DNA from: a virus
Lineage: Duplodnaviria > Caudoviricetes
Reading direction: 5' to 3' (one strand)
Length of the DNA: 64,000 bases
Virus record (IMG/VR): IMGVR_UViG_3300037114_000073
Location: 427 to 64,426 of that record
Position numbers and translations under genes: made by a program. The notes beneath the pieces are model-generated. The model searched no databases. It was not told where the DNA came from and worked only from the letters and a program-made list of their open reading frames with translations. This document shows, piece by piece, positions 14 to 60,552 of this stretch. The stretch's first letter is position 1. Each line of letters begins with the position of its first letter.

Positions 14-940
14 TCACTGAGATGCAGTTTCATTAAGCCTCTCCATATATACACGAATAGCATCCTGCAACTTAGGATTAGCACCAGTAAAACGATACAA
101 GCCTTGCCAATCCTTTATAATATCAATACTGGGATTAAACGTATGGTCTACGAGTAGTTGTCTACCAGAAGTGTATTCTCTATTTTTCCTATGACCATGA
201 AAGTAATGAATAATCGTTCCTGGTAAGTATCCTATATTTCCTCTTATTACACTATATGCTCGATTTCCCCAGACTCTCCACTTATTACAGTATGGTGCTG
301 TATATCCTTTCTCGAATGATACTTCAACGTGACCTAATAATCCCATTGTTATTCCAAGGTCTGCACTAGCGGTAATCGCCCAATCTGGTAGCATTCCTAT
401 TTGAGATAGAACTGATTTTCTAATTGCCCAGGGACCACCAACTATTTTCTCATTTAATGATGCTAATTGACTCCAGTTTCTTTCTAATTGTATGTAAGAG
501 TAAATGTAACTTTCAACTCTTTCCTCTAATGGCATAAAATTTGCATCTAAATCTTGACTATGACTAAACATCTGAACTGCATCATAACGATGCAATAACT
601 TAATTGTATCTTCTGCCCAATTTGGATTTAACCAAATCTGATCCGGATCAGTCCAACAAATATACTCAGCACTTTCTGGTAGTCGTTGAATAAGTAAATT
701 TAATGCAGCTTCTCTTCCCCATATCTCACAATCAGTTTTAAGCTGCAAATGATGTGCATTATCTGGACTTGTAACTACAAACGGCGAATCTTTAAATGCA
801 ATCTCAGCTGTAAATAACGCAACTGCATATTTACTAGTAATATTATAAATATGATTTCTAAATATACTATAATTACGATATCTAGATTCCCATCCTAATT
901 TATTTTGCATTACACATAGAACATATAAAGTCTCATCCAT
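14..940 (-). CDS. Putative GT-A fold glycosyltransferase
   Basis: DxD-like WTDPD motif, GGPWA and late HYFHG motif; likely start at MDETL (940), directly after the queC stop. Confidence 0.55.
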   Translation of the reverse strand: MDETLYVLCVMQNKLGWESRYRNYSIFRNHIYNITSKYAVALFTAEIAFKDSPFVVTSPDNAHHLQLKTDCEIWGREAALNLLIQRLPESAEYICWTDPDQIWLNPNWAEDTIKLLHRYDAVQMFSHSQDLDANFMPLEERVESYIYSYIQLERNWSQLASLNEKIVGGPWAIRKSVLSQIGMLPDWAITASADLGITMGLLGHVEVSFEKGYTAPYCNKWRVWGNRAYSVIRGNIGYLPGTIIHYFHGHRKNREYTSGRQLLVDHTFNPSIDIIKDWQGLYRFTGANPKLQDAIRVYMERLNETASQ

Positions 941-942
941 AC

Positions 943-1752
943 TTAGCCTTTCAAGATAGTCTTTAAAACTGTTCCTGGTGTTATAGCACATAAGTTACGA
1001 TCATATGCACTCTTGTATGCTCTCCAAACATCCATGATCCACTTTCGTTTTTCCCACAAAGGAATACTAAGAAGTGATTTCTTAAACATATTCTTATTTG
1101 TACTTCTAGAACGTTTGAATTCTTCTATCCCCCAGAATACTGGATGCGAGAAGTAATCATCTATATCGTATAACTTATTGTTTTCAAAAGCAACCCATCT
1201 ATTAAAACATGGAGGACATTCTCCACACACAGTTCCTTTTAAACATCCTATTGTTTCACTGAGCTGGAATGGGGTGACTTTCTGATCTAACAGATATTTT
1301 ACGACTTGTGTTTTTGTTTTATTCCCAAACGGTGCAAGTAATTCAATCTTACTTTTTGCATGGTATAGATTTTCTTTTGTTTGGCTATCGAATAATCTTT
1401 GCATTCGACGTAGAAATGGAAACCCTTTGTCTTCGGATAATTCTCCATGTAACATTCCAAATAAAATTGTGTTTCCATATAGTGCTGCTATCTCGAGTAA
1501 AAATATATTTCTAAGTGGAACATGTCCAACTTTATCTGAGAAGATACCCATGAACTTCATATCAACTACTTTAAAGTCCAGGTTTAAATCAAAACACATT
1601 TTCTTAGCTTTTACTATCTCTGCTATAGTATATGACGTATCTAAATTAACATACAACCCCATTATATCCTTGTAACGTTCCTTTGCCCAGTAATAACAAG
1701 CTAACGAATCTAATCCTCCACTGAACAATACAATTACTTGGGAATCATCCAT
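943..1752 (-). CDS. queC: 7-cyano-7-deazaguanine synthase-like (QueC family) with C-terminal extension
   Basis: PP-loop LFSGGLDS, VPLRN, KTK, Zn motif C-x5-CGECPPC-x2-R; likely start MDDSQ at 1752. Confidence 0.85.
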   Translation of the reverse strand: MDDSQVIVLFSGGLDSLACYYWAKERYKDIMGLYVNLDTSYTIAEIVKAKKMCFDLNLDFKVVDMKFMGIFSDKVGHVPLRNIFLLEIAALYGNTILFGMLHGELSEDKGFPFLRRMQRLFDSQTKENLYHAKSKIELLAPFGNKTKTQVVKYLLDQKVTPFQLSETIGCLKGTVCGECPPCFNRWVAFENNKLYDIDDYFSHPVFWGIEEFKRSRSTNKNMFKKSLLSIPLWEKRKWIMDVWRAYKSAYDRNLCAITPGTVLKTILKG

Positions 1753-2288
1753 TACTCTTCCCCCTTCCAACTTTGATTATTTAATATTGCACTGATGTTC
1801 TGATGTGTAACTCCAAACTTATAGCCTAATCTTCTATGAGTATAACCTTTATATTTATATAACTTACGTATCTTATGCACATCCTCTTTGGTTAATTTTG
1901 AAAACCCTTGATCCTCTCCTTTAGCAGCATGCGTATAATCAGAACGCCCTTTCTTTACTCTATCTTTACTATTATCATCAGATGTCCCTAAAAATAAATG
2001 ATTAGGATTACAACAAGGTGGATTGTCACATTTATGACAAACTTGTAATTTTTCCTTTCCATGTCTTTTAGGAATTTTACCAATAAATAATCTATAAGCC
2101 ACTACATGAGCATAAACAGTATGACAATACTTACACTTAAAATACTTATGGCCATAATTATTATTATTGCACCCTTGAAATTCCCAACATTCATCAAATG
2201 CTCCAATACTAATTCTAGATAAAAATCTAGCTATCATTAAACATTTTCTAAACCTGGGATACTTCTTAGCTGATTCACTATGTGCCAT
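1752..2288 (-). CDS. HNH homing endonuclease with C-terminal HTH
   Basis: ECWEF, YGH, AHVVAY, VCHKCDNPPCCNPNHLFLGT motifs; KLT..IR HTH tail. Confidence 0.9.
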   Translation of the reverse strand: MAHSESAKKYPRFRKCLMIARFLSRISIGAFDECWEFQGCNNNNYGHKYFKCKYCHTVYAHVVAYRLFIGKIPKRHGKEKLQVCHKCDNPPCCNPNHLFLGTSDDNSKDRVKKGRSDYTHAAKGEDQGFSKLTKEDVHKIRKLYKYKGYTHRRLGYKFGVTHQNISAILNNQSWKGEE

Positions 2289-4976: not shown

Positions 4977-5282
4977 TTAGCTTAAATGTTTACTAATAGC
5001 TCCAGCGATTTCCGTCATGAATATTGCGCCCTTAGGAATCTTAATCTTCTTGCCACGCATTTCAATTGTACGTTTGTCTTTAATCAACTTCTTAAATATA
5101 GGTTCCATCCTTTCATCACACTGGATAATGCGACCATCTTCATGCTTCTGATTTAACTTGTGCTTCTTTATATGCTTCCAGATTGATTTCGTGACTTCTT
5201 TCCTTGATAGTTTCTTTTCTTTTACTATTGCTTGTAGTTCCTCACTGCACTTCATTTCCTTATCTAACCCTTTACCTGCCAT
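4977..5282 (-). CDS. Stand-alone SWIB/MDM2 domain protein
   Basis: SEELQAIV...SRKEVTKSIWKHIKKHKL...IQCDERMEPIF matches the SWIB pattern. Confidence 0.85.
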   Translation of the reverse strand: MAGKGLDKEMKCSEELQAIVKEKKLSRKEVTKSIWKHIKKHKLNQKHEDGRIIQCDERMEPIFKKLIKDKRTIEMRGKKIKIPKGAIFMTEIAGAISKHLS

Positions 5283-16301: not shown

Positions 16302-16487
16302 CTATTTCTCCACACGAATGATTTGTCTTACATTTAACTTTCTTCTAAGCATAGCCAATGATCTTCGGTAAGTATTCTTTATATCATTCTTACAAATCCA
16401 AGCTTTGCATAATTCACACCACTCACACTCTTTTAATGTTTCATCATTATCTAATAATTTACAAACATCGCATACTTTATGTTCCAT
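16302..16487 (-). CDS. Small Cys-rich Zn-binding protein
   Basis: CDVC..CEWCELC..IC. Confidence 0.5.
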   Translation of the reverse strand: MEHKVCDVCKLLDNDETLKECEWCELCKAWICKNDIKNTYRRSLAMLRRKLNVRQIIRVEK

Positions 16488-19400
16488 AGTATTTTGTCCC
16501 TGATAATGTCATACCAAAGTTTCCTGCATTCGTGTCTAAACTATTCTGGCTAACTACTTTAACTAAATCTCCTACGTGGAATACGATACTAGTGGCAAAA
16601 TTAGACGTGAAAGCGCCCACGTTACTTCCTGCGGGGAACGTAATAGTTCCAATTGCTGTATCTGTTAGTGATCCTTTGAGTCTCTGGTAAATCGTAAATG
16701 TATACGTAGATGTCGGTGCTGACTCTAAATAAGCTTGACTGGGAACAAAACTATTATAAAATTGTACTACCTGATCAAATGGAATCCTGGCCATTGCTGT
16801 TCCTGTTGCCATTAATCCATTATACGTAGAACCTATCGTGTATGATGCTATATTCGGTGCTCCACTTACTGCTCCACTCACTCCTGGCCATACAACGAAA
16901 CTAGGAACCCCATCTCCTAGAGCATCAAACGGAGTTACTTTAATTAGACGTGGATTTAGATAGTCAGAAGGCGGAAGATTCGCTTGAAGCAGTATCTGAG
17001 GATTATTTGGATGGTCGATTGTGTACTTACTATATGTAACTCCACTATTTACATCCAACGTTTCTACACGATGTCCGTTTGGACTACCTGTTAATAACTG
17101 CCAAGCTATTCCTTGGTATACTGGAATAACGGTTAAACCTGTAATCGCTGGAACATTAAATGATGGAATAATCGTTGCTAATGAATAATCCCAGGTCAAG
17201 TTAAAGAAGTAAGCAGCTAATCCTGCAATTCTACTTCCACCATTCGCTGCCTCGAGTAGACTTAATGCGTCTGCTAAATTTGACTGTGTTAAGTCTATCA
17301 CTAAATCTGATGGAGCTGTTACTGTTCTTTGAATTAACGTTCCTGGTGGTGCATCTGGCAAGAATGCCGAGAATGCTATCGTTGTCGGTATTCCTGCAAC
17401 TAATCCGTTCAATGGAACATTAGAACACGAGAATGGCGTTGTAACTGGTACTCCACCTTCAATGCTAACGTTTATTCCTCCACCTGGTAATAGTGCATTA
17501 GGAATATAAAACGTAAATATAGTGCTACTTACTACACTTAAAACCTGCCACGTTCCGCAAAAGAACGATCCATTTGCTGGTACAAATCCAAAGCCTGCGG
17601 GGTATGGATTTTCTGTTAATCCATTTAATGCCATCGCGGCGTTAATTACTGCTAACTGTCCTATGCCTAAATTATGTGCAGTCTGCGTGACTACTGTCGC
17701 TACATTATTTACAAAACTTCCACTTGCTGCATTTACGTAACCGGCCCCTCTTGAAACTAACTGTGCTGTTCCAACTGTTAGATACTGGAATCCGATTGGA
17801 ACTTTCGTTGGGCCTATATTTGTAGGGTATGATAATAAATAGCTATCTTCTGTGCTATACGTTCCTGGTGATATTACTGATCCAAACGTTACACCATTAC
17901 TATTCGGTGAAGTTCCTACAGATGTAACTATTTTGAAACCATTAAACGAATTATCTGAATAACATATTTCACTTATTATATCTCCGACTTCAAATACTGG
18001 CGATAAGCCATTTGTTGTATTAGGAAGTATCTGAAACTGTGAACAAGAAAAATCTGCAAATGGTGTAGCAGGTGCTGGTAACGGTTGCTGTGATCTACCA
18101 AATGCTGTTACATTATAAACCGGATTTGCATCTGGAATCTCAATAAAGAAATTATTTAAATTTCCAGTTCCTGCTAATGCTCTTACTTCTAAACCGTATA
18201 TATCTCTAACATCCCCTGCAAAGTCTAGTACTATATCTGTGGAGTTAAAACTTACTAGTGCTGGAGCAGCTGGTATTAGTGGATATACTACACGTAGAGC
18301 TTTACTAAATCTAGAAACATACGGGCCATTTACAGCTCTTAAATACCATGTTTGATCCCGTACTGTTCTGGGAAGTGTAAATGTACTAGATGTAAAAAAT
18401 CCTATTCTACCTTGATCAGCTATGCCCCATCCTGAATCTACACTTCTTACTTCACACCCTGTAATCGGTAATGTTCCCAAACTAACAGAAATGTAATTTC
18501 CTGTTGCAGAATTAACTACAGAAGTAACTACTGCATTATCTAAAGTAGGTAAATAATAATTCAGTACTTGTTCTAGAGTAATCGGATTCGGTGGTGCCAC
18601 TGTCTGTGTTGGAGTTAAAACGTTTTGGTCTCTTTCTAAGAATGCTGGCAGTAATTTCTCTAAGTACAGATCAGGACCATAATCAATTCCTATACTTAAT
18701 ACTTCCTGCTTCATTTCTAAGATCTGTACTCTTACTGTATTACTCGCAAAGTTCTGTCCTGTAACACCTCTTGTCGGAGCATTGATATATAGAAACCTCC
18801 CGGCCATCGGGTAATTATACATCGATGGAGAAAATAAATTTTCAAACTTATAGGGAATTGTTTCTACTGTATACGTTCCCTGGAATTGGGGATATTCTCT
18901 ATCTAGTATTGCGGCTCCTGCTGCGGCTTCGCATTCAGCGGATGTTCTTGGCAGCGGAGATAGATTATTCATTATAGCTGAGCGTATTCCATTATCTCCT
19001 GTAATGGATGCTTCATTAGATATAGCAACTAAGTCCTGAACTCTGGCCACACTTTGGCCTGCTGCCCAACTTTGAAACGCTATTCTGGACCCAACTGCTG
19101 GAATATCGTCTGTATAAAAGCCTAATGCATAAGCTTCACCTTGTGCTGATATCTGTGCTGTCTGATTATCTTGACCTTCTCCTAACTGATACACTATAGC
19201 TGGAGATAATTGTGATGGCAGCCAAGGAAGATTTCCTCCCGATGCTCCTGTGAGTGACCGTACTGTTAGATATCCTTGTGGTGGTAAACTTAATAGAGTG
19301 TAGTTAATTGATACGTTTAGATCTATTCCATTTAACAAACAATACAACGCAAACGGTGGCAGTGATGCATTATACTGTGTGTACTGTGTTATTATTGGTG

Positions 19401-21147
19401 CTGGTGCTGATGGGAATAATCCAAACAACGGATTCTGTTCTTCAATTACATACACTCCTAGATTTACATCTGTAATTACCCATGTTATGCTTCCAGACGC
19501 AACTAGGTTTTGATTGCCGTAGGTCGCCGTCTGGGTCATGTTTGTATATGGCCGAGTGTACCTAGTTGGAGCTCCGGCACCGATCCACGTCTGTAATAGG
19601 TACTGATGATTTGCTTGGGTTACTACTGGCTGTCCTACAAACTGTCCATTGTAGATTGGCTGAATAACTAATCCAGCTGCTCCTGATGCGGTAACGAATA
19701 CTGCATTCGATCCAAATGTTATTGTTCCTGAATCTGTTGCTGGACCATATGCTGCGGCATAAGTAAATGATCCTTGGGCAGTAATAACGTAATTACCGGT
19801 ATTCTGTGCTATTCCTACTACAGTCTGTTGTGTTCCATTTAAGAAACTAGCTCCTCCGAAACTAGCACAACTCATTACATATCCGGGCTGTAAATTCGTT
19901 GGAGCTATTCCATTAATTTGTAGCTGGACTAGATTGGTATTTCCTTGTGTGATAGTTACTGATACTACTGTAAACGTTCCAATATTTGATTGGCCTGTGA
20001 TACCAAATCCTGCCAAACAATTTCCTGGAGTAAAACCGGATGAGCCGAATATAGCTCCTATTAAACCTCCACCACCACTTGCTGTATCATTGAATGTAAT
20101 TGAACCATGCTGTAGATTTATTCCACCACCTAGTTCTAATCCATTCTGTGCTTGTATAAATGTGGCATTTACTTGTGGCACATATACTGCTAATGGTGAT
20201 CCTTTCTGTACTACGTTTAAAGCACCTAAAGCATTACCATTACCATCTGCTAGACTAATTACATTTTCTGGATCATTTACTATCCACGTTCCTTGTGCAA
20301 ATGTACTTTCAGTCCAATCATCCTGTAAAAGTATATCTGATGTTCCTTGGAATACTTGATGCTTTAACTGAAAGTTACTTGTGAATCCATCTCCAACAAA
20401 ATAATCAACGCAATTCGTTTGTGGTTCAACATCTCCGATAACTATACAATCATTTACTGGAGGTACGGTAACTACACCCGTGGACATCTGTGCTGGGCTT
20501 ATTTGGCTCTCTAGCTGCGTTTGCTCATTATAAGCAATTCCAAGCGGTGCATCTCCGAATGGTTGATAAATAAACTTTTTATTTATTACCTTGTAATGAT
20601 AACGATTTGCATCTGCAAATGTTTTAGCTATATCTGACCATGTCTGAGTAGGATCATACTGATAATATGGAATGAGTGTACCACTAGCGGCTAGAGAAGT
20701 TGTATCTAAAAATCCAGGATTTAATGCTTGAGCTATTGCTCCTAGGATTTGTGAATCTGTTTGATTTACGAATGCTGGTATATAGGATACAACTTGGGAA
20801 TTAAGTATCCATTCTTCAGAGGTTACTTGTACATTGTAATTGTACTGTGCTTTCTTAGAATTGGCAGCTGTAGCAGCTAAGCCTAAATATACTCTTTCTG
20901 GTTCTGTAGTTACTACTCCTGTAGCTAATATTTTCCCTGATCCATATCCTCCATTTAGAGCATACACTTCACTTTGAATCGTTACGTATGTTCCTCGTTT
21001 CGGTGAAACAAAAGTATTATCAACGGGGGAGAGCTGGAAAGTTATTAGCGTAGGAACATTTAACGAATCTTCTATTGTTACAGAGCCCGTGACAACGTGG
21101 CGAGTGTAATCAACCGTTCCTGCTGTCGTCGTAAAAAGGATCTTCAT
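16477..21147 (-). CDS. Large tail tip / host-specificity protein
   Basis: 1556 aa, beta-rich, immediately after the tape measure gene. Confidence 0.75.
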   Translation of the reverse strand: MKILFTTTAGTVDYTRHVVTGSVTIEDSLNVPTLITFQLSPVDNTFVSPKRGTYVTIQSEVYALNGGYGSGKILATGVVTTEPERVYLGLAATAANSKKAQYNYNVQVTSEEWILNSQVVSYIPAFVNQTDSQILGAIAQALNPGFLDTTSLAASGTLIPYYQYDPTQTWSDIAKTFADANRYHYKVINKKFIYQPFGDAPLGIAYNEQTQLESQISPAQMSTGVVTVPPVNDCIVIGDVEPQTNCVDYFVGDGFTSNFQLKHQVFQGTSDILLQDDWTESTFAQGTWIVNDPENVISLADGNGNALGALNVVQKGSPLAVYVPQVNATFIQAQNGLELGGGINLQHGSITFNDTASGGGGLIGAIFGSSGFTPGNCLAGFGITGQSNIGTFTVVSVTITQGNTNLVQLQINGIAPTNLQPGYVMSCASFGGASFLNGTQQTVVGIAQNTGNYVITAQGSFTYAAAYGPATDSGTITFGSNAVFVTASGAAGLVIQPIYNGQFVGQPVVTQANHQYLLQTWIGAGAPTRYTRPYTNMTQTATYGNQNLVASGSITWVITDVNLGVYVIEEQNPLFGLFPSAPAPIITQYTQYNASLPPFALYCLLNGIDLNVSINYTLLSLPPQGYLTVRSLTGASGGNLPWLPSQLSPAIVYQLGEGQDNQTAQISAQGEAYALGFYTDDIPAVGSRIAFQSWAAGQSVARVQDLVAISNEASITGDNGIRSAIMNNLSPLPRTSAECEAAAGAAILDREYPQFQGTYTVETIPYKFENLFSPSMYNYPMAGRFLYINAPTRGVTGQNFASNTVRVQILEMKQEVLSIGIDYGPDLYLEKLLPAFLERDQNVLTPTQTVAPPNPITLEQVLNYYLPTLDNAVVTSVVNSATGNYISVSLGTLPITGCEVRSVDSGWGIADQGRIGFFTSSTFTLPRTVRDQTWYLRAVNGPYVSRFSKALRVVYPLIPAAPALVSFNSTDIVLDFAGDVRDIYGLEVRALAGTGNLNNFFIEIPDANPVYNVTAFGRSQQPLPAPATPFADFSCSQFQILPNTTNGLSPVFEVGDIISEICYSDNSFNGFKIVTSVGTSPNSNGVTFGSVISPGTYSTEDSYLLSYPTNIGPTKVPIGFQYLTVGTAQLVSRGAGYVNAASGSFVNNVATVVTQTAHNLGIGQLAVINAAMALNGLTENPYPAGFGFVPANGSFFCGTWQVLSVVSSTIFTFYIPNALLPGGGINVSIEGGVPVTTPFSCSNVPLNGLVAGIPTTIAFSAFLPDAPPGTLIQRTVTAPSDLVIDLTQSNLADALSLLEAANGGSRIAGLAAYFFNLTWDYSLATIIPSFNVPAITGLTVIPVYQGIAWQLLTGSPNGHRVETLDVNSGVTYSKYTIDHPNNPQILLQANLPPSDYLNPRLIKVTPFDALGDGVPSFVVWPGVSGAVSGAPNIASYTIGSTYNGLMATGTAMARIPFDQVVQFYNSFVPSQAYLESAPTSTYTFTIYQRLKGSLTDTAIGTITFPAGSNVGAFTSNFATSIVFHVGDLVKVVSQNSLDTNAGNFGMTLSGTKYYGT

Positions 21148-24100
21148 TACGGTGTTTCTCTACGGAAGTTACCACTACCATATCTACCACGAGTCTGATA
21201 TACCTGATTAAGCATTGATTCTAAAACTGGAGATCCAGTATTACTATTATTTACTGCCGATAGTGTATCCTGCAATGATTGCATATATTGCATCTCTAAC
21301 TGTATCTGACTTTGTCGTGCACTGATAACTGTCATTTCTAGACTAGCTCTTTGCTGGGTAATATTTAACAATGTCTGATGCGTTTGTACTAGATCTGATG
21401 TTGAACTAGACGTTGGTGGAGCACTTGTTCCCATCATCGTATTTAATGCACTAACAATTGGATTAGATAATACAGTTCCTTTAGTTGGCGGTAAGAGTAG
21501 CTCAGGACCATTTTCTCCAACCATAACTGGAGCTGTAATATCACCACCACTTGCAGCACCGGGAGGATTAGCTGCTTGGCTCTGCAACCAAGAAACCAAT
21601 CCAGTCATATCAAAGCCTTCAATTTCACCTTGCTGTACATACTGGGATGCGTCTGATGCTGCTGATGCATATTGTCCGGCTAAAATCATATTCGGAAAAT
21701 TAGGATCTAATCCTGCTACGTAAGATGCTGCACTAGCGTCTGTTGCTGGTATTGCAGACAACCAATTTGTAATTCCATACTGTCCTTGTGTAGCAGTAGG
21801 TGGAACATTTCCCGCTAATCCTAATTCCTGGAGCAGAGTATACATAATACCTGATTCAGTTGGCATTGCTCCTGAACTCATTAAATTTGTAATCGTTGCC
21901 GATAAAGCTCCACTAGACATACCTGATTGCAATGCAGTTACAACTTGTGCTAGAGCTTGGACTTGCAATATCTGGTAATTGGCTTGTTCTTCTTGTGCTT
22001 CTAATAATTGCGTTTCCAATCCAATTCTAGTAGTAGCTAATCCAAATATTTGCTGCTCTGATGCTACCTTATACTGCTGTAAGGATATTTCTTCATTGAT
22101 CTGCTCTAACTGCATATCTCTTTGATATCGTAACTGACCAATTTCTTGTCCTTTGGTCATTGCAGTTGTACGCTGTCTAGTTAATACACCTTGTGTCAAG
22201 ACATCGTATTCTTGCTGAGCTTCCTGATTTATTATCTGCTGTCTCTGGTATTCAAGATTAATTAGAGTCAACGCATCTTGAATTGCTTGCTGCTGTGCCT
22301 GGTTTAATTGCTGACTTAATGTTGTAACATATTGCTGTAGACTATCATTTAGATATTGATTAGCTGCTGCTACTTCCTGAGCGTTACCTTGAGCTGCAGA
22401 AGCGAATTGCTGATACTTCTGAATTATCTGATCCAATGACTGGAGATAGTCTTGGAATTGAATCGGATTTGACAATTCCATCAACGACGTACTTAGATTT
22501 TCAAGTATTACTGACTGCTGACTTACAAGTGCATTTATTTGTGTATCTATTTGTTCAATTACAGCCTGAGCTTGGCTTGGAGTATAACCTTTCTTAGCCC
22601 CTTTACCTCCACCTTTACCACCCTTTGGATTCTGGGATAATAATGCGATTGCTTGCTGACGTTCTTGGCGCAGATCAGAAATTGCTTGTGACATGGAAAT
22701 AGTTCCAGCCGCCATATCTGATACTATGGATTGCATTTGAGTCTGGATCTTATGAATGTCCTCTGTTAGACTTTTTGTTTTAGATCCAAATATTCCACCT
22801 AATGTTCCTCCGACTCCAGCTCCTATTAAAGCACCCCAAGGACCAAACATTGCTCCTTCTTGCATTCCTGATGCTGCTCCACTTAAGGCACCTGCTCCTC
22901 CGGATTTTCCACTAGTTACTCCTTTAACCATTCCCATTACACCTGATATAACAGATGTTAATGCAGTTTCAAATTGAGTTAATCTATCTGATAAAGGTTC
23001 TGTGGCTTTAAACAACCCTGTAAAAGACTGAGTAAGGCTTGTGATTATATTTGTAGGACCCGTAGCTGTAGCTGCACCACCTGTAGTAGCAGCTATATCA
23101 TTTTGTCTTACTGCTTCCTTATGCTGTTGCATTATAGCAGCATTATAATCAACTGACTTTGATATATCTTGACTTGCTCCTGCCATATTACCAAATAATT
23201 CTGATGCACCTGCTGCTGTTCTACTTCTTGGTATTGCACCAGCTAAGCCTGATATAGAACTAAATATTCCACCCAATGGCCGGCTCATATTTTGTGACTT
23301 AATAAGTTCAAGATTTAACTTTTGTATCTCTAACGTAGTCTTTTCTATGTCTTCTTGCAACTTCAACCAATCGTCAGATCCCTTCTTCGGTGTCTGTTGC
23401 ATTAAATCATTAAGATGTTGCTGAGCTAATCCTAATAACTGTTGTCTAGCACCAGTTTCTACTCCTGCTGATCTTCCTGTTATATCTCCCTGGGCAATAT
23501 TTACTTGTGTCTGATATGGTCTTGTACTTAACTGGTATTTGGTTTGCAGGGTCTTTAATTTTATTTCATCCTGTTGCCCCATTAATAACGTTACTTGTTT
23601 CTCACCATTAATTTTTGCTTCTGCAATCTGACTATTTATCTTAGCTGTTTCTGCTGCATTATTTTTAGCTGCTCCCAACTGATCTTGAAGTCCTGTTACT
23701 GTAATTTGAGTTTCTTGGTTAATTAAATCTCTACGTTGCTGTAGATAATCATCTGCTCCAACTAACCCTTGTTTAAATTCCTGTTCTAATATCTGTAATC
23801 GTTCTTGTACACCATCTTTAGCTATCTTTGATAATGCATCAACATAAGTGCGATAAGCTGCTTCTTTATCTGCTGCCGATTGTTTATCTAATCCGGCACC
23901 CTTTTGTTGATAAGCTGTATTCTCAGAAACAAATTTTTGTTGTGCTCCTAGATTAGCAACGTCAACTTGCTTTTTAATTATGTCAGCTGGAGTTCCGGAT
24001 TCTTTACCTTGTACACGTATACTTTTAATCTTAGCATCTCGTTCTTCTTCTATATCTCTAATCTTAGCTTCATGTTCAGCTTTGTTTATTGCTCTTTGTT

Positions 24101-25943
24101 TTGTGACTTCAGTATATAGATCTATCGTTCCAGCTTCATATGCAGCTTTAGTAGCATCTTCTTGCTTCTTTAAATACTCCAATGCCATTTCATATTTAAT
24201 TTGAGCAGTTTCCTTAGCTATCTGTAACTCTAATTGCTGACGTTGTTTCGTAGCAGATGGATTAAAGTTTACATCTTGCTGAGGGCCTGCTTTTTCTGGT
24301 TTTCCCTTATTTAATCCATAACCTTCTCTTATAACTCCAGCTACATCTGCTCCATATTGCAAACGAGAATCAGCTATTTTGGTATCAATGGAATCAAATA
24401 TAGCTTTGGCAGCAGAAAACTTACCTTTTGCAACTGCTTCTGCTATATCACCAGCTGCACTAATATGGATAGCTGCTTCATTAGCATACTGGGATAGAGT
24501 TAAAAATCCTAACGATAAATCCATAATAAGTTCTTTAAACGGACTTATCTTTTTCTGTGCTTGTTCAACACTAGACGCTACACCTGTAAGTGCATCTACT
24601 ACCTGGAAGAAAGCAGTAACTGATGTCTTTAAAAGATTAAATGTTGAAATTATTAAATTTAACCCCGGCATTACTAAATCTAATGCATCACCTATTCTTG
24701 ATCCTATGAATTCGGCAAATTCTGATAGTATTGGTGTAAGCTTTGTTAGAACTCCAGACAACTCTGAAATAACATTTTTAAATCCATCAGTTCGTGTAAT
24801 AGATACAGCCATATCATCAATAACATTTTTCTGTACAGTTAACCACTGTTTAAATAATTCTGGTAATGTAGCTGCTGGAGTTCCTATTGCTTTTTCTCTG
24901 GCTTCAAGTGCAGCTAAGACTTGATTAAACTGGAGTGTATTTCTTGTGGTTGCATCCATCGCGGAACTCACTCCCTTTAATTGCAGTTCTTGACGAGTGA
25001 GTCCTGTTACCATCGCTAATACTTGAGCACGTCCAGTTTTAGATGCTCGTTCTAATGCAGCCATTGCTGTCGGTGCATCTTTACCTTGAGCTCTTGCTAA
25101 ATTTACTGTTGCTGCCACTAACCGTACTATCGAATCATTGCTTACTTTTAATCCTTGTTGCATGTAATTATTTGCTATGCGATACAAGGATACGTCATCA
25201 GCCAATCCACGTGTTGCTGTTCTAAGCTTATTAAGATAATCAGACGGATCAGTACCGGATCTAGCAGTTAATTTTTCAAACTGTTCTCTTAACTGTACAG
25301 CTGGACCAGTAGCATCTAATAATGCTTGCCCTAGAGAATGTATTTTCTGGCCAGCTGAATCTAATAACTTAATAGCACCTTCTCCGATTAATCCTCCAGT
25401 TAATACTCCTCCTGCTATACTTCCTAACATTCCACCACCAGCAATTCCACTTACGAATCTACCTATACCTCCCATTAATCCACTACCACCACCGCTACCA
25501 GATTGGGCTTTCTGCTGGCGAAGTTGTTCTTGTGTCTGACGTTGCTGGAATGCATACTGCTGTTGGGCTAGACGTAATTTCTCTTGTTCTAATCGTACAG
25601 TTCCTTGTGCTAATACTTGTTGCTTTTTAACTTCTGTGGTCTCGAGTACTCTCTGCTGAATGGTGGTGCGAATAGCTTCTTGCTGCTGTTTCTGCCATAC
25701 CGCTTTTGCTCGATCTACTTCTTGTAATACTTTCGCTTCTGCTTGTAAACGTTTCTGGTCTGCTATCTGCTGTCTGGTTAAATCAATTGATTCTTTCTGT
25801 GTTGCTTTTTGCTGAGCAGCATCTCGTTTTGCCGCTTCATTGACTGTATTTAACTGGGATTTGATTTCATTAATGGCAGTTTTCCAATCGGACGTAGAAA
25901 TTCCGAGCTTGATCAGAAGTTTCTTAATTGGTTCATCTGCCAT
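21147..25943 (-). CDS. Tail tape measure protein
   Basis: 1598 aa, helical Q/A-rich, Gly-rich hydrophobic segments, C-terminal ASGG..VGENGPEL motif. Confidence 0.92.
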   Translation of the reverse strand: MADEPIKKLLIKLGISTSDWKTAINEIKSQLNTVNEAAKRDAAQQKATQKESIDLTRQQIADQKRLQAEAKVLQEVDRAKAVWQKQQQEAIRTTIQQRVLETTEVKKQQVLAQGTVRLEQEKLRLAQQQYAFQQRQTQEQLRQQKAQSGSGGGSGLMGGIGRFVSGIAGGGMLGSIAGGVLTGGLIGEGAIKLLDSAGQKIHSLGQALLDATGPAVQLREQFEKLTARSGTDPSDYLNKLRTATRGLADDVSLYRIANNYMQQGLKVSNDSIVRLVAATVNLARAQGKDAPTAMAALERASKTGRAQVLAMVTGLTRQELQLKGVSSAMDATTRNTLQFNQVLAALEAREKAIGTPAATLPELFKQWLTVQKNVIDDMAVSITRTDGFKNVISELSGVLTKLTPILSEFAEFIGSRIGDALDLVMPGLNLIISTFNLLKTSVTAFFQVVDALTGVASSVEQAQKKISPFKELIMDLSLGFLTLSQYANEAAIHISAAGDIAEAVAKGKFSAAKAIFDSIDTKIADSRLQYGADVAGVIREGYGLNKGKPEKAGPQQDVNFNPSATKQRQQLELQIAKETAQIKYEMALEYLKKQEDATKAAYEAGTIDLYTEVTKQRAINKAEHEAKIRDIEEERDAKIKSIRVQGKESGTPADIIKKQVDVANLGAQQKFVSENTAYQQKGAGLDKQSAADKEAAYRTYVDALSKIAKDGVQERLQILEQEFKQGLVGADDYLQQRRDLINQETQITVTGLQDQLGAAKNNAAETAKINSQIAEAKINGEKQVTLLMGQQDEIKLKTLQTKYQLSTRPYQTQVNIAQGDITGRSAGVETGARQQLLGLAQQHLNDLMQQTPKKGSDDWLKLQEDIEKTTLEIQKLNLELIKSQNMSRPLGGIFSSISGLAGAIPRSRTAAGASELFGNMAGASQDISKSVDYNAAIMQQHKEAVRQNDIAATTGGAATATGPTNIITSLTQSFTGLFKATEPLSDRLTQFETALTSVISGVMGMVKGVTSGKSGGAGALSGAASGMQEGAMFGPWGALIGAGVGGTLGGIFGSKTKSLTEDIHKIQTQMQSIVSDMAAGTISMSQAISDLRQERQQAIALLSQNPKGGKGGGKGAKKGYTPSQAQAVIEQIDTQINALVSQQSVILENLSTSLMELSNPIQFQDYLQSLDQIIQKYQQFASAAQGNAQEVAAANQYLNDSLQQYVTTLSQQLNQAQQQAIQDALTLINLEYQRQQIINQEAQQEYDVLTQGVLTRQRTTAMTKGQEIGQLRYQRDMQLEQINEEISLQQYKVASEQQIFGLATTRIGLETQLLEAQEEQANYQILQVQALAQVVTALQSGMSSGALSATITNLMSSGAMPTESGIMYTLLQELGLAGNVPPTATQGQYGITNWLSAIPATDASAASYVAGLDPNFPNMILAGQYASAASDASQYVQQGEIEGFDMTGLVSWLQSQAANPPGAASGGDITAPVMVGENGPELLLPPTKGTVLSNPIVSALNTMMGTSAPPTSSSTSDLVQTHQTLLNITQQRASLEMTVISARQSQIQLEMQYMQSLQDTLSAVNNSNTGSPVLESMLNQVYQTRGRYGSGNFRRETP

Positions 25944-54592: not shown

Positions 54593-55153
54593 TTATTGTG
54601 CAACCTCACTGGGAGTAGCTCCTCTCGACATGCTAACACCACTAGTGGTAACAGACGAAATCTTATTAGTAAGCACTCGTATCTTTTTGCTAACTTCAGC
54701 ATCACCTTGGTAATCAATTGTACCCAAAACCCCGCAATAAGGAAGATCTTTCTGATTAACTTCTTCTCGAACTAAACGATAATATTTATCGTCAAGATAC
54801 GATCCTGTTGACATTCCCTCGAAATGTGCAAATGCTATACGAGATCCTATTTCAAAAGACGAACGATGATAAATTGTTTCGTCTGATTCTCCACCTTCAC
54901 TATCAATAATTACCCTACGTACTGTATAAGGTTTCCAAACTGCGATAACTATTCCTTCATAGACTGTTTTTTGCTGGGCGGTTTCTGCTAAAATAATTCC
55001 CCCTTCAGTAACGTGTTCCTTAGGGAGTACCCTTGTTAAACAATACGGATAATTAGGAATAAAACGTCTACCACCAATATTTAATTCATATATTTCCTGG
55101 CAAATAGACGAAAGCTTTTTCTCAAGTAACGCGATTCTCTTTTCATTATTCAT
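54593..55153 (-). CDS. GroES-like co-chaperonin
   Basis: Mobile-loop motif TEGGIILAETAQQK..GIVIAV. Confidence 0.75.
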   Translation of the reverse strand: MNNEKRIALLEKKLSSICQEIYELNIGGRRFIPNYPYCLTRVLPKEHVTEGGIILAETAQQKTVYEGIVIAVWKPYTVRRVIIDSEGGESDETIYHRSSFEIGSRIAFAHFEGMSTGSYLDDKYYRLVREEVNQKDLPYCGVLGTIDYQGDAEVSKKIRVLTNKISSVTTSGVSMSRGATPSEVAQ

Positions 55154-55533
55154 TGTTTTACCTTCGAGGCTAGATTATTCATCTGTAACGTTTCTTTTAC
55201 ATTCTTTTCTGTTGGTGCAATTAATGATGATTGCTTTGTTTCTACTTTTGCCCAAGTAGGAATCATATATCCATGAGAATTAAAATGGCTAACAGCGAAT
55301 GTATAAGCTGTTCCACAATTGGGGCACTTATCTAACTTCTCATGTGCAAAAGCAATAACCGTTACGTCAATAGAATTTAAAATTCTGGGTCTAGGAATCT
55401 TAACTACTATTTCTTCTTGACAGTTTTGGCATTTAAACCTAGCTGCTATTGGAAGTGCTCGTCCTGCATCTGGAACTGGTTGTTGTGGTTGATTATTATT
55501 TTCTTCTGTCATCGTACAAGCTCCCCTGTGCAA
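55150..55533 (-). CDS. Zn-ribbon protein
   Basis: CQNC..CPNCG. Confidence 0.55.
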   Translation of the reverse strand: MHRGACTMTEENNNQPQQPVPDAGRALPIAARFKCQNCQEEIVVKIPRPRILNSIDVTVIAFAHEKLDKCPNCGTAYTFAVSHFNSHGYMIPTWAKVETKQSSLIAPTEKNVKETLQMNNLASKVKQ

Positions 55534-56288
55534 GCTGAAAATACTTTGTGTAGTTGAACCGATATTCTAAGACTCGGATATTGTTTCTGCCATTCTAGGC
55601 AACGTTGTAAATTATCATTATTTACTGAGTTCTCAAAATTGATCGGCTGGATAAACACGGGTTTCCTTTTTGAAAGCTCTACTAAGTCAATATCCCAAAA
55701 ACTTTTATCGTCAAACATAACTTGCATCTTAAATAAATCATCGGTAGTAAAATTATCATCAATTAATACTTTTAATTCATCTGCCCTATTAATCATCGAT
55801 GAATAGCAATTAAGTTTCGGTGATAGTGTTACCCATATTCCTTGATCTAAATGCTTATTAACTGTTCCTGATGTTTCAATATGTATCTTCTTATCTTTAT
55901 GCCATAGATAAGTAATTAATGTTGTAAGATCGTGATCTAATGGTTCTCCTCCTGTAATACAAACGTGTTCTACATCAACTGGAATACGATTCATTAATTG
56001 TTCTATATTTAAACGTTCCTTTACACGATAATCGGTGTCACAAGGAAATTCTAATTCGTGTGCACTTGTACACTTGTGAGTATATACAGGAAGTAAAGGC
56101 ATCATGTTAAGTTTATTCTCGATCATCTTCTGATTATCATTTAAAGGAAATAATTCATATCTATTCTTAGGATAAAGTTTACCAACACTGCATCCAGCTA
56201 AGCGAATAAAATATTGCATCTGTCCTGCATAACATCCCTCACCTTGTGGACTTACGAATATTTCACTTATTGGATATTTCTTTTCCAT
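55509..56288 (-). CDS. queE: 7-carboxy-7-deazaguanine synthase (radical SAM)
   Basis: EIFVSPQGEG, FIRLAGC, CDTDY, ITGGEP, IETSG, LSPK, SVQLHK. Confidence 0.92.
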   Translation of the reverse strand: MEKKYPISEIFVSPQGEGCYAGQMQYFIRLAGCSVGKLYPKNRYELFPLNDNQKMIENKLNMMPLLPVYTHKCTSAHELEFPCDTDYRVKERLNIEQLMNRIPVDVEHVCITGGEPLDHDLTTLITYLWHKDKKIHIETSGTVNKHLDQGIWVTLSPKLNCYSSMINRADELKVLIDDNFTTDDLFKMQVMFDDKSFWDIDLVELSKRKPVFIQPINFENSVNNDNLQRCLEWQKQYPSLRISVQLHKVFSACTGELVR

Positions 56289-56449: not shown

Positions 56450-56902
56450 TTACCTAATCCTATCGTCATACAACCCTCCGGTTCTTTTTCTCTTGGCAAC
56501 ATCTCTTGATACCGTTGGTTCTTCTTTCTTTACTTCAAATCCGAAAACACGAAATAATGATTTAACTGCTCCGAATAAACCGCCTACATACGGTGTCTTA
56601 TCTCCTGTTTGTTCTTCATCTGGATATAGGATTAATATACCACCCTCTTGTGACATGTCTGCATCTATAGGGGTAGGCATCTTATTCATATCATTTGATA
56701 GATAATATTGTGTTAATACGACATCTTCGGGATTCTCTATTCCTGCTTCTTTCATTTCACAAATCTTACACTTGCTAATCGTTCTGATCAGAGGATTTAC
56801 TGCTCGCATTATTTCTCTACCACATTGACGGCAGAAAATACTCCTCAGCCCGTCTGCTCTGACTCTTCCACCGTCCTGATGATGGGTGAACTCTCTTGCC
56901 AT
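56450..56902 (-). CDS. Zn-ribbon hypothetical protein
   Basis: CRQC..CKIC. Confidence 0.5.
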   Translation of the reverse strand: MAREFTHHQDGGRVRADGLRSIFCRQCGREIMRAVNPLIRTISKCKICEMKEAGIENPEDVVLTQYYLSNDMNKMPTPIDADMSQEGGILILYPDEEQTGDKTPYVGGLFGAVKSLFRVFGFEVKKEEPTVSRDVAKRKRTGGLYDDRIR

Positions 56903-57654
56903 AAATCCTCCCAGACTGAAAACAAAAAATTAGCTGTGACATTGTTTCCAACTACAGCACGATATTTATCTAGTCCTGAGTTACCGTATAATATTCCTTG
57001 CAGATTAGATGGAAAGAATTCTATGACTGACTTCTTTAATACGGCTGCTATATACGTTGCTGTACTTGCTTCTCCTATAACTATCTTTGCATGATTAATA
57101 TATCCTATAAATGACATCGGAGCAGCTTCATATTTTTCCATTTCTCTACCATCTATGATTATATTTAATTCTGGATAATTATTTAAAAGATAATCATAAA
57201 ACTTTTGTGCTTCTTCTCCATCACCCCAGGGAAATATTAATACATCCATCATTAAATCTTTTTCTGGTTCTTCCACCTGGAGTGCAGCTAATATAGGCCA
57301 CTGTCCCGCTCCAGTTCCTATTAATGTATTCAACCCTGCGGTTATATGTATTCCAACTCTACTAGATATCTTTTCAGCACGTTGGAAATCAAAATTAATA
57401 AAACAATCAAATTCTCCTCTTTGCCATTCATTCCATCCTGAATAATCTACAACTGGTATGTTATCTTTGACTACTCTCAATGCGGGTTCGAAGTATTTAA
57501 ATTTCTCATCCATACGAATGGTTATTAGATAATGTTTTTCTCTTTCATTTCTCTGAGCTCCAGTTGCAGCTTGCAGAGAATAATCCTGGACTATAGCCAT
57601 AGCTAGGAGAAAATCTCTTAGATTATCGGGCATCTGGATGAGGATTGAGTCCAT
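56845..57654 (-). CDS. Divergent GT9-like glycosyltransferase
   Basis: LRDFLLA and AKIVIGEASTATYIAAVLKK resemble degenerate GT9 motifs. Confidence 0.5.
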   Translation of the reverse strand: MDSILIQMPDNLRDFLLAMAIVQDYSLQAATGAQRNEREKHYLITIRMDEKFKYFEPALRVVKDNIPVVDYSGWNEWQRGEFDCFINFDFQRAEKISSRVGIHITAGLNTLIGTGAGQWPILAALQVEEPEKDLMMDVLIFPWGDGEEAQKFYDYLLNNYPELNIIIDGREMEKYEAAPMSFIGYINHAKIVIGEASTATYIAAVLKKSVIEFFPSNLQGILYGNSGLDKYRAVVGNNVTANFLFSVWEDLWQESSPIIRTVEESEQTG

Positions 57655-57658
57655 AATT

Positions 57659-58204
57659 TTATTGCACCCTATAAGTCTTACCTTTTAATACAGCATAAAT
57701 TGGCCAAGATGATACCTTAAACTTATCAGCTAAATCTTGTTGTGTATACTTTCCTGTTTTATATAATTTCTTTATTTCTTTAACTTGTTCCATTGTTAGT
57801 TTAGAATGCCAATTATCCTCTCCTCTAAGCCCGTGCCATTCACGACGACCCTTCTTCATCATATCATGTACATTTTGTTTCTGTGTCCCTAACCATAAAT
57901 GATTAGGATTTACACAAATAGGATTATCACAAGAATGACAAACTTTTAATCCATGACGACGACCTATAAAAAACTCATACGAAGCTACATGAGCAAACTG
58001 TATCCGTTTTCCATGTAATTTGAATAAACACTTACCATAACCATAACTATCAGTTGCACCTTTCCATTCCCAACATTCATCTTCTTCACCTATATCTACA
58101 TAATGTAAAAATTGTGCAAACTTAAAATAAATATCAAACTTCTTATAATTATAACGAGCTATTTGCTCACTCTGTGTTGGATGTACTTTTTGAGATTTAG
58201 ACAT
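57659..58204 (-). CDS. HNH homing endonuclease (paralog of 1752..2288)
   Basis: ECWEW, YG, AHVASY, VCHSCDNPICVNPNHLWLGT. Confidence 0.9.
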   Translation of the reverse strand: MSKSQKVHPTQSEQIARYNYKKFDIYFKFAQFLHYVDIGEEDECWEWKGATDSYGYGKCLFKLHGKRIQFAHVASYEFFIGRRHGLKVCHSCDNPICVNPNHLWLGTQKQNVHDMMKKGRREWHGLRGEDNWHSKLTMEQVKEIKKLYKTGKYTQQDLADKFKVSSWPIYAVLKGKTYRVQ

Positions 58205-58514
58205 GACTTTTTAATTTCTTATCTGGATCTACAAAAACAGCTTTGTAATAGCAACTCGGACATACAAAACTATTTTGAGCTTTCCCACCTAACTCAGGAA
58301 ATAATGGCAAACAATGTTTTTTACGAAAATAAGTTCTACAAGTACTACACCAAAACATTTCTTCTCTTGGTTTCTTTCTTACATCCATCCAAGCTTCAGC
58401 AACGGCACTTCCAGCCATACATACAAATACTATAACCATTAAAACAATTAGAAAAACGATATGGTGTGAAATAAATCTCATTGGCTTAACACTTGCTTGA
58501 ATACGTACTTCCAC
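58197..58514 (-). CDS. Membrane-anchored Zn-finger protein
   Basis: TM helix then CSTC..CPSC. Confidence 0.5.
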   Translation of the reverse strand: MEVRIQASVKPMRFISHHIVFLIVLMVIVFVCMAGSAVAEAWMDVRKKPREEMFWCSTCRTYFRKKHCLPLFPELGGKAQNSFVCPSCYYKAVFVDPDKKLKSHV

Positions 58515-59569
58515 GTATCAGCTATAACAGCTGCATTATAAAATTTGAACATAACATTGTACATTTTTTGAGCAATATCTTTTCTCATCTCGGGTTCGTT
58601 GATTAGTGTAGTTAATTTTGTTTTCCACTGGGAAATGGAATTGCAAAGTAACCATTTAAGATCGTCACCACCTAGTTCGCAGAATTCTCTATACGGTTGT
58701 ACATCACTTACTAAACAAGGAATCTTTATTGCTGCGGCTTCAAGTAACTTGATATTCGATTTTGATCTGTTGAATCTGCTATCTACCAGCGGTGCAATCG
58801 ATATATCCCATCCCCAACTAGCAAAACGGTTTGCATATTCTCCTACGGCACATCCTTGTCTGTACCCCGTTTGTGGATGGATAGCTATTTTATTTGTAAC
58901 GACTGTTCTTGATTTAGCTCTACCAACTAATCTACCTTGTTTATCATACTTAGCTTTCCAAGTATCTTTTATATCTAATGCTGCTGCTCCTACAATCTGC
59001 ATAATTGCTGTTGGATTCTTATCTAATACTTCTGGAATAATATCGAATACATCTTTGCAGTCTTCTGAATGTGTAGTAGAACCACCCCAACCGATCATTA
59101 CTAGATTATCTTTTACTAAGTTTTTAGGATAGAAAAGATCTGTATCAATTGCATTAGGCACAATATAGATTGGTTTATTTAACCTGAATCCTGTACGTGC
59201 TGCTGATGCCAGCCTTTGAGTACTGACTGTTATTGCATCAGCTTCAGCTGCACATTTCCAAAACCCTTCTTGCATAGAATCAAATACTTGTTTTCCAGGA
59301 TTAGCAGATGGAAGATCCCAAAGGTTATCATCTGTGTCATAGATAACTTTTATTCCTACTTCTCTCATTCTCTTAATAGCATTCAAGTTATGATCTGATA
59401 CTTGTCGCTGTACGATAGCTATCTTACATCCTTGTATTTCCCTTAAATCAACTGGTCCGAGTCTAAATACAAAAGACGATCCTGGAATATTTAAATGTGG
59501 TTGATACATACGCCACAAGGCACATCCATCAATCGCAGCTGGGAAGAAAACTATTTCAGATGGATTCAT
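58478..59569 (-). CDS. GT-B (GT4-like) glycosyltransferase
   Basis: YDTDD, VPNAID, IGW.GS..H, APL..FN..KSNIKLLEAAA. Confidence 0.85.
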   Translation of the reverse strand: MNPSEIVFFPAAIDGCALWRMYQPHLNIPGSSFVFRLGPVDLREIQGCKIAIVQRQVSDHNLNAIKRMREVGIKVIYDTDDNLWDLPSANPGKQVFDSMQEGFWKCAAEADAITVSTQRLASAARTGFRLNKPIYIVPNAIDTDLFYPKNLVKDNLVMIGWGGSTTHSEDCKDVFDIIPEVLDKNPTAIMQIVGAAALDIKDTWKAKYDKQGRLVGRAKSRTVVTNKIAIHPQTGYRQGCAVGEYANRFASWGWDISIAPLVDSRFNRSKSNIKLLEAAAIKIPCLVSDVQPYREFCELGGDDLKWLLCNSISQWKTKLTTLINEPEMRKDIAQKMYNVMFKFYNAAVIADTWKYVFKQVLSQ

Positions 59570-59967: not shown

Positions 59968-60552
59968 CTATCCCTTCCCTGTTTCTTCTTGGCTGCAGCT
60001 CGTCCCTTTTGATAGTAATGATTCTTCTTCATTCTTTTGATGTAATTTTCCAGATTCCTCAATGCTAACGTTCTGCGATCTATTCCTAACGATGATTTCA
60101 TAATCCTCACGCGTATATGTAGCTGAACATTTACTTGTCTCCCATAGTTTAACCTGTACTAAATTACAATCCAAATGTGCTAATAATCCTGGTGCAACAT
60201 CTTCTACAAAATACTGTGCTAAATTTTCTACTGTTGGATTACACGGAAGTCCTATTACTGCTGACGAATCGTGGCAGAATGCCATCGGTGCTGCTATTCT
60301 CATTGCTGTGTAAAGATGATCCTCTTTCCATAACAACATCTTATGATCCCAATTCTTTTCTAACCAATTACACAATACATCTTTTACTACTCCAAAATCT
60401 AATACTCTTCCTAGTTTATCTAAACCATTCATGGAACCTATAGTTAATTCAAATCGATAATTATGCCCATGAATATTCCGACAGGCTCCTTCATGACCAT
60501 ATACTCTATGCCCCGCACAAATCTCATGCTCGCGGGTAATAAGGACTGCCAT
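59968..60552 (-). CDS. queD: 6-carboxytetrahydropterin synthase
   Basis: H..C..HGHNY, LDF, WDH, NPTVENLA, LWET. Confidence 0.92.
   Translation of the reverse strand: MAVLITREHEICAGHRVYGHEGACRNIHGHNYRFELTIGSMNGLDKLGRVLDFGVVKDVLCNWLEKNWDHKMLLWKEDHLYTAMRIAAPMAFCHDSSAVIGLPCNPTVENLAQYFVEDVAPGLLAHLDCNLVQVKLWETSKCSATYTREDYEIIVRNRSQNVSIEESGKLHQKNEEESLLSKGTSCSQEETGKG

Follow-up and report, generated by a model that had tools for sequence, protein, structure and literature searches.

The window analysed here is a 64,000-nucleotide stretch of virus DNA (Caudoviricetes), which covers positions 427 to 64,426, and thus nearly all, of the 64,426-bp IMG/VR virus record IMGVR_UViG_3300037114_000073. The completeness of this record is estimated at 54% by CheckV. 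[quoted passage not shown] The preferred reading, with a probability of about 0.8, is that the gene product is a functional phage QueE, with a conserved hairpin standing in for the two residues that normally separate the second and third cysteines. It is read as a CDG synthase because of its motifs, the pathway genes that accompany it and a gene context in which phage DNA modification has been shown experimentally. Judging from sequence comparison, CX39CX9C is a fixed-signature variant of a large and mostly viral QueE branch, which spans hundreds of clusters of sequences found in metagenomes and on viral contigs.

The open reading frame (ORF) starts with an ATG, preceded at 9 nt by an AGGAG, and encodes 259 amino acids. 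It is the sole radical SAM match of the record, where almost every gene lies on the minus strand (GC content 36–44%). Cysteines are found at positions 19, 33, 73, 83, 110, 161, 230 and 253. The segment of interest reads R29-L-A-G-C33, then 39 residues, C73, nine residues and C83-D-T-D-Y. The presumed first cluster cysteine, C33 (codon 56190..56192, minus strand), stands at the end of strand beta-1 and aligns with the first cysteine of the Escherichia coli and Burkholderia multivorans enzymes. The first spacer (residues 34–72, 56073..56189) has conserved ends and a hypervariable middle. It is followed by the proposed second cluster cysteine C73 (56070..56072), located within the model strand 71–75, and by the second spacer (residues 74–82, 56043..56069), which is predicted to form a beta-hairpin. 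The C83-D84-T85 codons (56034..56042) encode the CDT motif of QueE, including the putative third cluster cysteine, and this motif is invariant in the family alignment; C-D-T also closes the cluster motif of E. coli QueE in the PDB sequence-search alignment. The preliminary description of this DNA had already pointed out a CX39CX9C motif in an otherwise intact QueE, and this is borne out by the ORF, its translation, the three cysteine codons checked against the DNA and the family alignment. Its two points of reference are also correct, since CX3CX2C is seen in the aligned E. coli QueE and CX14CX2C is part of the name of the NCBIfam model TIGR04508.

The conservation of this arrangement was assessed in several sets of relatives. 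The sequence C-x9-C-D-T is present in all 119 relatives listed by a word-indexed search, at 40–63% identity. When representatives of clusters at 50% identity were searched exhaustively, 4,452 proteins were obtained at E ≤ 1e-3, including 101 at E ≤ 1e-30, and the C-Xn-C-X9-C arrangement occurs in nearly all of the best 150 of these 4,452. The relatives from the searches were then pooled with ORFs from 81 loci (80 from metagenomes and one from a genome) and from three IMG/VR loci, giving 341 sequences, 320 of which are unique. C-Xn-C-X9-C-D-T, defined as a cysteine exactly ten residues before that of C-D-T plus the beta-1 cysteine, is found in 307 of these 320, and the relatives sharing this architecture are 30–64% identical to the window protein. 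Among the 298 of the 307 in which the first spacer is measurable, its length lies between 7 and 56 residues (median 29). X39 is thus a single instance of a freely varying length, and X9 is the constant. The 13 exceptions comprise three sequences with an intein-like insert, which become X9 once the insert is removed, three with X8, one with X10, two of CX6CX2C type and four without the motif (fragments or other sequences).

Alignment with QueE homologues had been proposed as a check of the motif. C33, C73 and C83 are each present in 246 of 246 aligned relatives, although the mean column identity of this alignment is only 27%, which indicates a conservation far beyond chance. The rows were picked for GEG and C[DN][TS]; C83 is thus partly selected for, which is not the case for C33 and C73. 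Among the other cysteines, C110 is conserved in 91% of the rows and C230 in 74%, with no conservation of C19 or C161. Invariant or near-invariant columns further include E9, F11, Q15-G16-E17-G18, G22, F27, R29, G32, T112-G113-G114-E115-P116, E138-T139-S140-G141, S156-P157-K158 and Q245-x-H247-K248. The SAM-binding GGE and the QueE motifs (QGEG, the arginine after beta-1, CDT, ETxG, SPK and QxHK) align with those of the solved structures 6nhl and 4njg.

The three insert-bearing relatives, P0122 (565 residues), P0128 (571 residues) and P0136 (599 residues), carry about 320 additional residues directly before the third cysteine. Their N-terminal part ends in R-x-F-x, the insert itself runs from C to N-H-N, and C-D-T-D follows. 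The HINT model PF07591 matches P0122 above its cut-off (31.4 bits); HINT and Intein_splicing match P0128 weakly, and P0136 has no Pfam match. The insert looks like an intein, and the third cysteine would be its +1 residue since the insert ends in HN just before C-D-T. Because inteins favour functionally essential sites, such a location speaks for a functional cluster cysteine.

Only the two ends of the first spacer and the X9 hairpin are conserved in the cluster region. In the alignment of the closest relatives, the spacer starts as G-C-x-V-G-K-P-[YF]-P-K and ends as L-P-[IV]-Y-T-E-x-C, and neither the length nor the sequence of its middle is constant. With 39 residues, the window protein has one of the longer loops in the family. 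The AlphaFold2 model is least confident in the middle of the spacer, with mean pLDDT (predicted local distance difference test) values of 79, 65 and 85 for 10-residue blocks of the spacer versus at least 95 elsewhere. The preliminary description had suggested that the insertions could bind partner enzymes; the hypervariability and the lower pLDDT of X39 argue against a conserved docking role for it. A subset of the first-spacer loops (12 of 298) contains at least three extra cysteines, for example in P0018, P0048, P0060, P0066, P0097, P0109, P0110 and P0124. Most of these loops display a recurring H-C-x3-C-...-D-P-D-[ILM]-G-H-x3-C motif, which could form a small knuckle that binds metal within the first spacer.

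The family consensus of the second spacer is T-L-Y-D-G-R-x-F-x, the window protein having T-S-A-H-E-L-E-F-P, and positions G78 and F81 are each kept in 90% or more of the family. DSSP assigns strands 71–75 and 80–83 in the AlphaFold2 model. Residues 71–83 are thus predicted to fold into a tight beta-hairpin that turns at D-G and has C73 and C83 as its two feet.

The model, built with 148 relatives, has a mean pLDDT of 94.9 and a pTM (predicted template modelling score) of 0.90. Its six best Foldseek matches are all QueE chains. With VIA-align, the solved QueE structures come first (Z 19.5 for 4njg, 18.5 for 6nhl, 18.4 for 5th5 and 17.9 for 5tgs, with root-mean-square deviations (rmsd) of 2.5–2.8 Å over 188–196 residues), and the next family is pyruvate formate-lyase activase, at Z 14.0. 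The minimal radical SAM fold characteristic of QueE is recognized in this model, and three conserved cysteines, which probably bind the cluster, follow strand beta-1. The solved QueE structures are homodimers. Sequence searches likewise retrieve only three QueEs among the solved relatives, namely 6nhl (2e-16), 4njg and 5tgs/5th5, and the family profile aligns end to end with the E. coli (2.5e-40) and B. multivorans (1.1e-29) enzymes. The best NCBIfam match is TIGR04322, QueE_Ecoli (6.4e-23), the next four being other QueE models, and among PHROGs it is phrog_2076, "QueE-like radical SAM domain" (2.6e-26).

Two genes of the same pathway are present in the window. The gene queD (59968..60552, minus strand; PF01242, 1.4e-28) encodes the PTPS-family 6-carboxytetrahydropterin synthase, which acts one step before QueE, and queC (943..1770, minus strand; PF06508, 8.3e-23) encodes 7-cyano-7-deazaguanine synthase, which acts one step after it. 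In relatives, folE, queD and queC are found beside queE. At 40–55% QueE identity, a conserved block associates QueD, a glycosyltransferase, a small ORF, a 269-residue ORF, a 150-residue ORF, QueE, a four-cysteine protein, a GroES-like protein and the large terminase. More distant C-X9-C loci (30–37% identity) display a different order, with a nuclease and QueC, then QueD and QueE, and further on FolE (PF01227, 1.5e-40) and UDG-PolA. The full preQ0 set is located there inside a replication module. No second QueE is present in the loci of relatives that have folE, queD and queC. According to two studies, phage 7-deazaguanine DNA modification has been demonstrated experimentally in such a gene context, and some of the modified phages have no DpdA (PMC6884629, PMC10516641).

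In the proposed mechanism, the enzyme would convert 6-carboxy-5,6,7,8-tetrahydropterin (CPH4) by ring contraction to 7-carboxy-7-deazaguanine, with the help of a [4Fe-4S] cluster, SAM and Mg2+. This would be the third of the four steps to preQ0 (FolE, QueD, QueE, QueC), a product which such phages use mainly for DNA modification. The cluster would be held by C33, at the end of beta-1, by C73 and by C83. Since C73 and C83 both sit at the feet of the hairpin, both could reach the same cluster, and the X9 hairpin would be an excursion that brings them back side by side. The 39-residue stretch between C33 and C73 would form a surface loop, the length of which is freely variable and tolerated by the fold.

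The distribution of second-spacer variants was also considered among viral QueEs. A set of 78 QueE-like ORFs was fetched from IMG/VR by patterns derived from the C-X9-C family, and is therefore a biased sample and no census. CX2C is found in 46 of them and another second spacer in 32 (seven X6, five X8, four X9, five X13, ten X31–40 and one X3). The variant groups recognized in this sample are CX3CX8-9C, CX3CX13C, CX5CX6C and CX3CX31-40C. Two annotated viruses add to this diversity, since the QueE of the halovirus HVTV-1 (gene 73, L167:5983-6768) is of CX3CX22C type and that of phage NCTB (L168:1501-2376) of CX3CX34C type. About 30% of the guanines in HVTV-1 DNA are replaced by dPreQ1, as stated in PMC6884629. 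A quick maximum-likelihood tree of 123 sequences was calculated after removal of columns less than 50% filled, with SH-aLRT values as sole support. The C-Xn-C-X9-C sequences group with the small CX6CX2C clade (51 rows, SH-aLRT 94), the CX3CX8-13C and CX5CX6C types form a second clade (SH-aLRT 98) and the CX3CX3xC type a third one (SH-aLRT 99). These three separate clades indicate that the second spacer was lengthened at least three times in viral QueEs. The internal resolution of the first clade is too poor to order CX6CX2C as ancestral or derived.

The motif was looked for in cultured phages by tblastn with three family members. The identity of the matches did not exceed about 35%, and among them the best ones inspected (MT838590, Vibrio phage ALK and Mycobacterium phage Coffee) are of CX3CX2C type. 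A scan of IMG/VR for close relatives of the window protein alone gave no match, and a scan with the family profile retrieved mostly distant QueEs among the matches listed. A narrow pattern scan of 185,579 species genomes, which is no census, returned one locus, L163, with 36% identity. It is situated where a contig of 560 kb ends, in an Acidobacteriota metagenome-assembled genome which encodes an ordinary TGT elsewhere, and could be either a prophage or a binning artefact.

Several observations weigh against a working CDG synthase. The scores of the window protein remain far below the cut-offs of all the NCBIfam QueE models (in bits, 81.4 versus 200 for TIGR04322, 67.2 versus 240 for TIGR04508, 59.8 versus 300 for TIGR04349, 56.6 versus 260.1 for TIGR03963 and 47.6 versus 206.1 for TIGR03365), and it thus belongs to none of these five curated subfamilies. 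The Pfam model PF04055 (Radical_SAM) matches only residues 94–144, with 18.4 bits for a gathering threshold of 29.5. No DpdA/TGT (PF01702) and no FolE were matched in the record, which is 54% complete. The hairpin of the window protein is itself atypical, with E78 where 94% of the relatives have a glycine and H71 where most have a glutamate; its two nearest relatives keep the histidine and retain the glycine at position 78. Moreover, the HVTV-1 precedent is no proof that such variants are active, because the host may supply its own QueE and may itself produce preQ0. The PF04055 model expects the canonical loop, and a precomputed PF04055 match exists for just nine of the 119 listed relatives. 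Two other C-X9-C members likewise miss the NCBIfam cut-offs, and among the variant types scanned only the CX14CX2C type reaches one. CX39CX9C departs from both published triad spacings, CX3CX2C and CX14CX2C, yet accepted QueEs already differ in this respect, so that an odd spacing marks a variant and does not exclude a QueE.

The low scores could also reflect an enzyme of QueE fold that catalyses another reaction, with a different pterin or purine as substrate or with a different product, the remodelled loop being a sign of this new function. The lack of a DpdA match in the record would fit with such a view, as would the three glycosyltransferase-like genes located near the deazaguanine genes, which suggest that the final product may be unusual. 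However, QGEG, R29, CDT, TGGEP, ETSG, SPK and QxHK, which are common to the solved QueEs and which face SAM, the substrate and Mg2+, are all invariant. In addition, queD and queC co-occur with the gene here, and folE, queD and queC do so in relatives that have no other QueE to fulfil this step. A change of chemistry appears thus quite unlikely. Decay offers another explanation of the unusual motif, in which insertions would have broken the cluster site of a non-catalytic relic; both spacers are indeed non-canonical, and the window copy has the E78 and H71 substitutions mentioned above. Such a relic would hardly be expected to retain an intact frame with a ribosome-binding site, a confidently modelled fold and its pathway partners, nor would one expect 307 of the 320 unique sequences, at only 30–64% identity to the window protein, to maintain the same architecture. 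This explanation is considered highly improbable.

The identity of the third cluster ligand deserves a separate discussion. C33 and C83 could be completed by a ligand other than C73, such as C110 or a non-cysteine residue, with C73 serving structurally, for instance to pin the hairpin. The 91% conservation of C110 is compatible with this possibility. Furthermore, the aromatic residue usually found one place before the third cysteine sits two places before it (F81), so that the loop does not simply reproduce the canonical arrangement. C73 is nevertheless present in every aligned relative, whereas C110 is missing in 9% of them, including the closest relative, P0002. A cysteine also occupies the C110 position in B. 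multivorans QueE (VVCTGGEP), where it is presumably no cluster ligand. Lastly, the fixed X9 is precisely what is expected of two hairpin feet holding one cofactor. A ligand set without C73 is therefore regarded as very unlikely, and the assignment of C33, C73 and C83 as the probable cluster ligands of a functional QueE is preferred.

The neighbourhood of queE includes other genes of possible relevance, all of them on the minus strand when located below. A glycosyltransferase gene (58478-59569; phrog_7162) and a 269-residue ORF (56845-57654) are found between queD and queE and are syntenic in relatives; the latter has no Pfam or PHROG match and looks like a GT-B enzyme on reading its sequence. 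Candidates for a TGT were sought around queC. The ORFs upstream of queC in relatives proved instead to be PD-(D/E)XK nucleases or to have no Pfam match, and the 325-residue ORF which overlaps queC in the window (14-991) looks like a GT2-type glycosyltransferase according to an ESM Atlas lead. These glycosyltransferase-like genes could indicate that the DNA modification carries a sugar, or may have nothing to do with it.

Directly 3′ of queE lies a gene for a 120-residue protein with four cysteines, CxxC...CxxCG (55150..55512), the ATG of which overlaps the queE stop codon (ATGA). It is kept at this place in the close clade. Homologues are detected in 19 of the 81 metagenome and genome loci (tblastn E ≤ 1e-5), many of which are too short to show the gene, and in further loci at E ≤ 1e-3. 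All four cysteines are invariant in 17 of 17 sequences. The protein has at most weak, sub-cut-off zinc-ribbon matches in Pfam, and falls into no Pfam or PHROG family. Small four-cysteine ORFs are also observed 3′ of queE in some distant loci, and such ORFs are common in the window genome. A complex prediction of QueE with this protein, including 4Fe-4S and SAM, gave a score of 0.00, which speaks neither for nor against binding. Upstream of queE, a 150-residue protein with CxxC...CxxC (56450-56902) has homologues in 17 loci (E ≤ 1e-5) and belongs to no Pfam or PHROG family. A GroES/Cpn10-like gene (186 residues, 54593-55153) is located between the four-cysteine gene and the large terminase. One relative, P0214 (408 residues), consists of a C-X9-C QueE fused to a GroES-like part, with an altered Q-x-H-K; this fusion may be a frameshift or gene-calling artefact. 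HNH_3-type homing-endonuclease-like genes lie beside queC (1752-2288) and inside the queD–queE block (57659-58204), the second one being missing from most syntenic relatives. Elsewhere in the window, a SWIB/MDM2-domain protein of 101 residues (4977-5282; PF02201, 1.4e-18) is unusual for a phage, and two adjacent giant ORFs encode 1,556 and 1,598 residues (16477-21147 and 21147-25943).

The preliminary description had proposed a new cluster-binding architecture. This holds in that the arrangement is conserved, is covered by no curated family and has no description that could be found. It is, on the other hand, not special to the window phage, being common to 307 of the 320 relatives, nor is it unique, as viral QueEs show several variants of the second spacer, of which this is one. 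No account of a C-X9-C QueE was found in a literature search that included the accessible parts of PMC9477430, PMC10516641, PMC6884629, PMC11142719 and PMC11994313, the QueE structure papers and supplements being outside its range. The QueE cysteines are not discussed in the corresponding parts of the phage deazaguanine papers PMC6884629 and PMC10516641, and the words "cysteine" and "radical" do not occur in that of PMC6884629.

No part of the radical SAM signature is more constant than the CX2C pair, on which motif annotation and profile models rely. Because their second spacers are not CX2C, C-X9-C enzymes miss the cut-offs of Pfam and NCBIfam, and 7-deazaguanine DNA-modification pathways can therefore be under-called in surveys of phages. 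This kind of modification shields phage DNA from restriction enzymes. The preliminary description had further suggested that the insertions could alter reductant choice, an idea with a precedent in the title of the structure paper on E. coli QueE, which raises the question of loops near the cluster that set reductant specificity. Natural first spacers of 7 to 56 residues provide test cases of how far the cluster loop can change and how such loops determine this specificity. No flavodoxin or rubredoxin gene was matched in the 54%-complete record. A broader proposal, which is put forward only tentatively and seems rather doubtful, is that the cluster-binding loop of virus QueEs is an evolutionary hot spot, rebuilt independently at least three times. 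The hairpin and the loop ends would then form a different cluster environment, altering reduction (the donor or the oxygen tolerance) or control in the infected cell, and some of the loops might bind a second metal.

Among known systems, E. coli QueE (6NHL; TIGR04322) is the best match by sequence and profile, with a fold Z-score of 18.5 and an rmsd of 2.8 Å over 188 residues. It has in common with the window protein the QGEG, FIRLxGC, CDT, TGGEP, IETSGT, SPK and QxHK motifs. The cysteines differ, with CX3CX2C (C31, C35, C38) in E. coli versus CX39CX9C here, and a lysine of the window protein occupies the position of the second E. coli cysteine (GCSVGK versus GCPVGC). The variable region is also displaced, since it comes after the third cysteine in E. 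coli and before the second one in the window protein. In E. coli, this region (E45-W67, just past the motif) is dispensable for Q synthesis and has another function, as reported in PMC11142719. B. multivorans QueE (4NJG; TIGR04508, "queE_Cx14CxxC") is the best structural match, with Z 19.5 and an rmsd of 2.8 Å over 194 of 209 residues, and constitutes the published precedent for an insertion in the first cysteine spacer. Its first spacer is nevertheless fixed at 14 residues and its CX2C is kept, in contrast to the 7–56 residues (39 here) and the X9 of the window family.

Outside the QueE family, ThiC uses CX2CX4C. The RadicalSAM.org paper lists CX4-, CX5-, CX6-, CX7-, CX8-, CX9- and CX11-CX2C variants and assigns CX3CX2C to the QueE megacluster (PMC9477430). 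These variants have their three cysteines after beta-1, like the window protein; only their first spacer is odd and their CX2C is kept (PMC9477430). The HVTV-1, NCTB and IMG/VR variants have the QueE-like core in common with the window protein, and their third cysteine (C-D-T/S) is likewise displaced from the second. The small CX6CX2C group is the nearest neighbour of the C-X9-C family. The HVTV-1, NCTB and IMG/VR variant groups all keep a first pair of CX3C type, and only the C-X9-C family alters both spacers.

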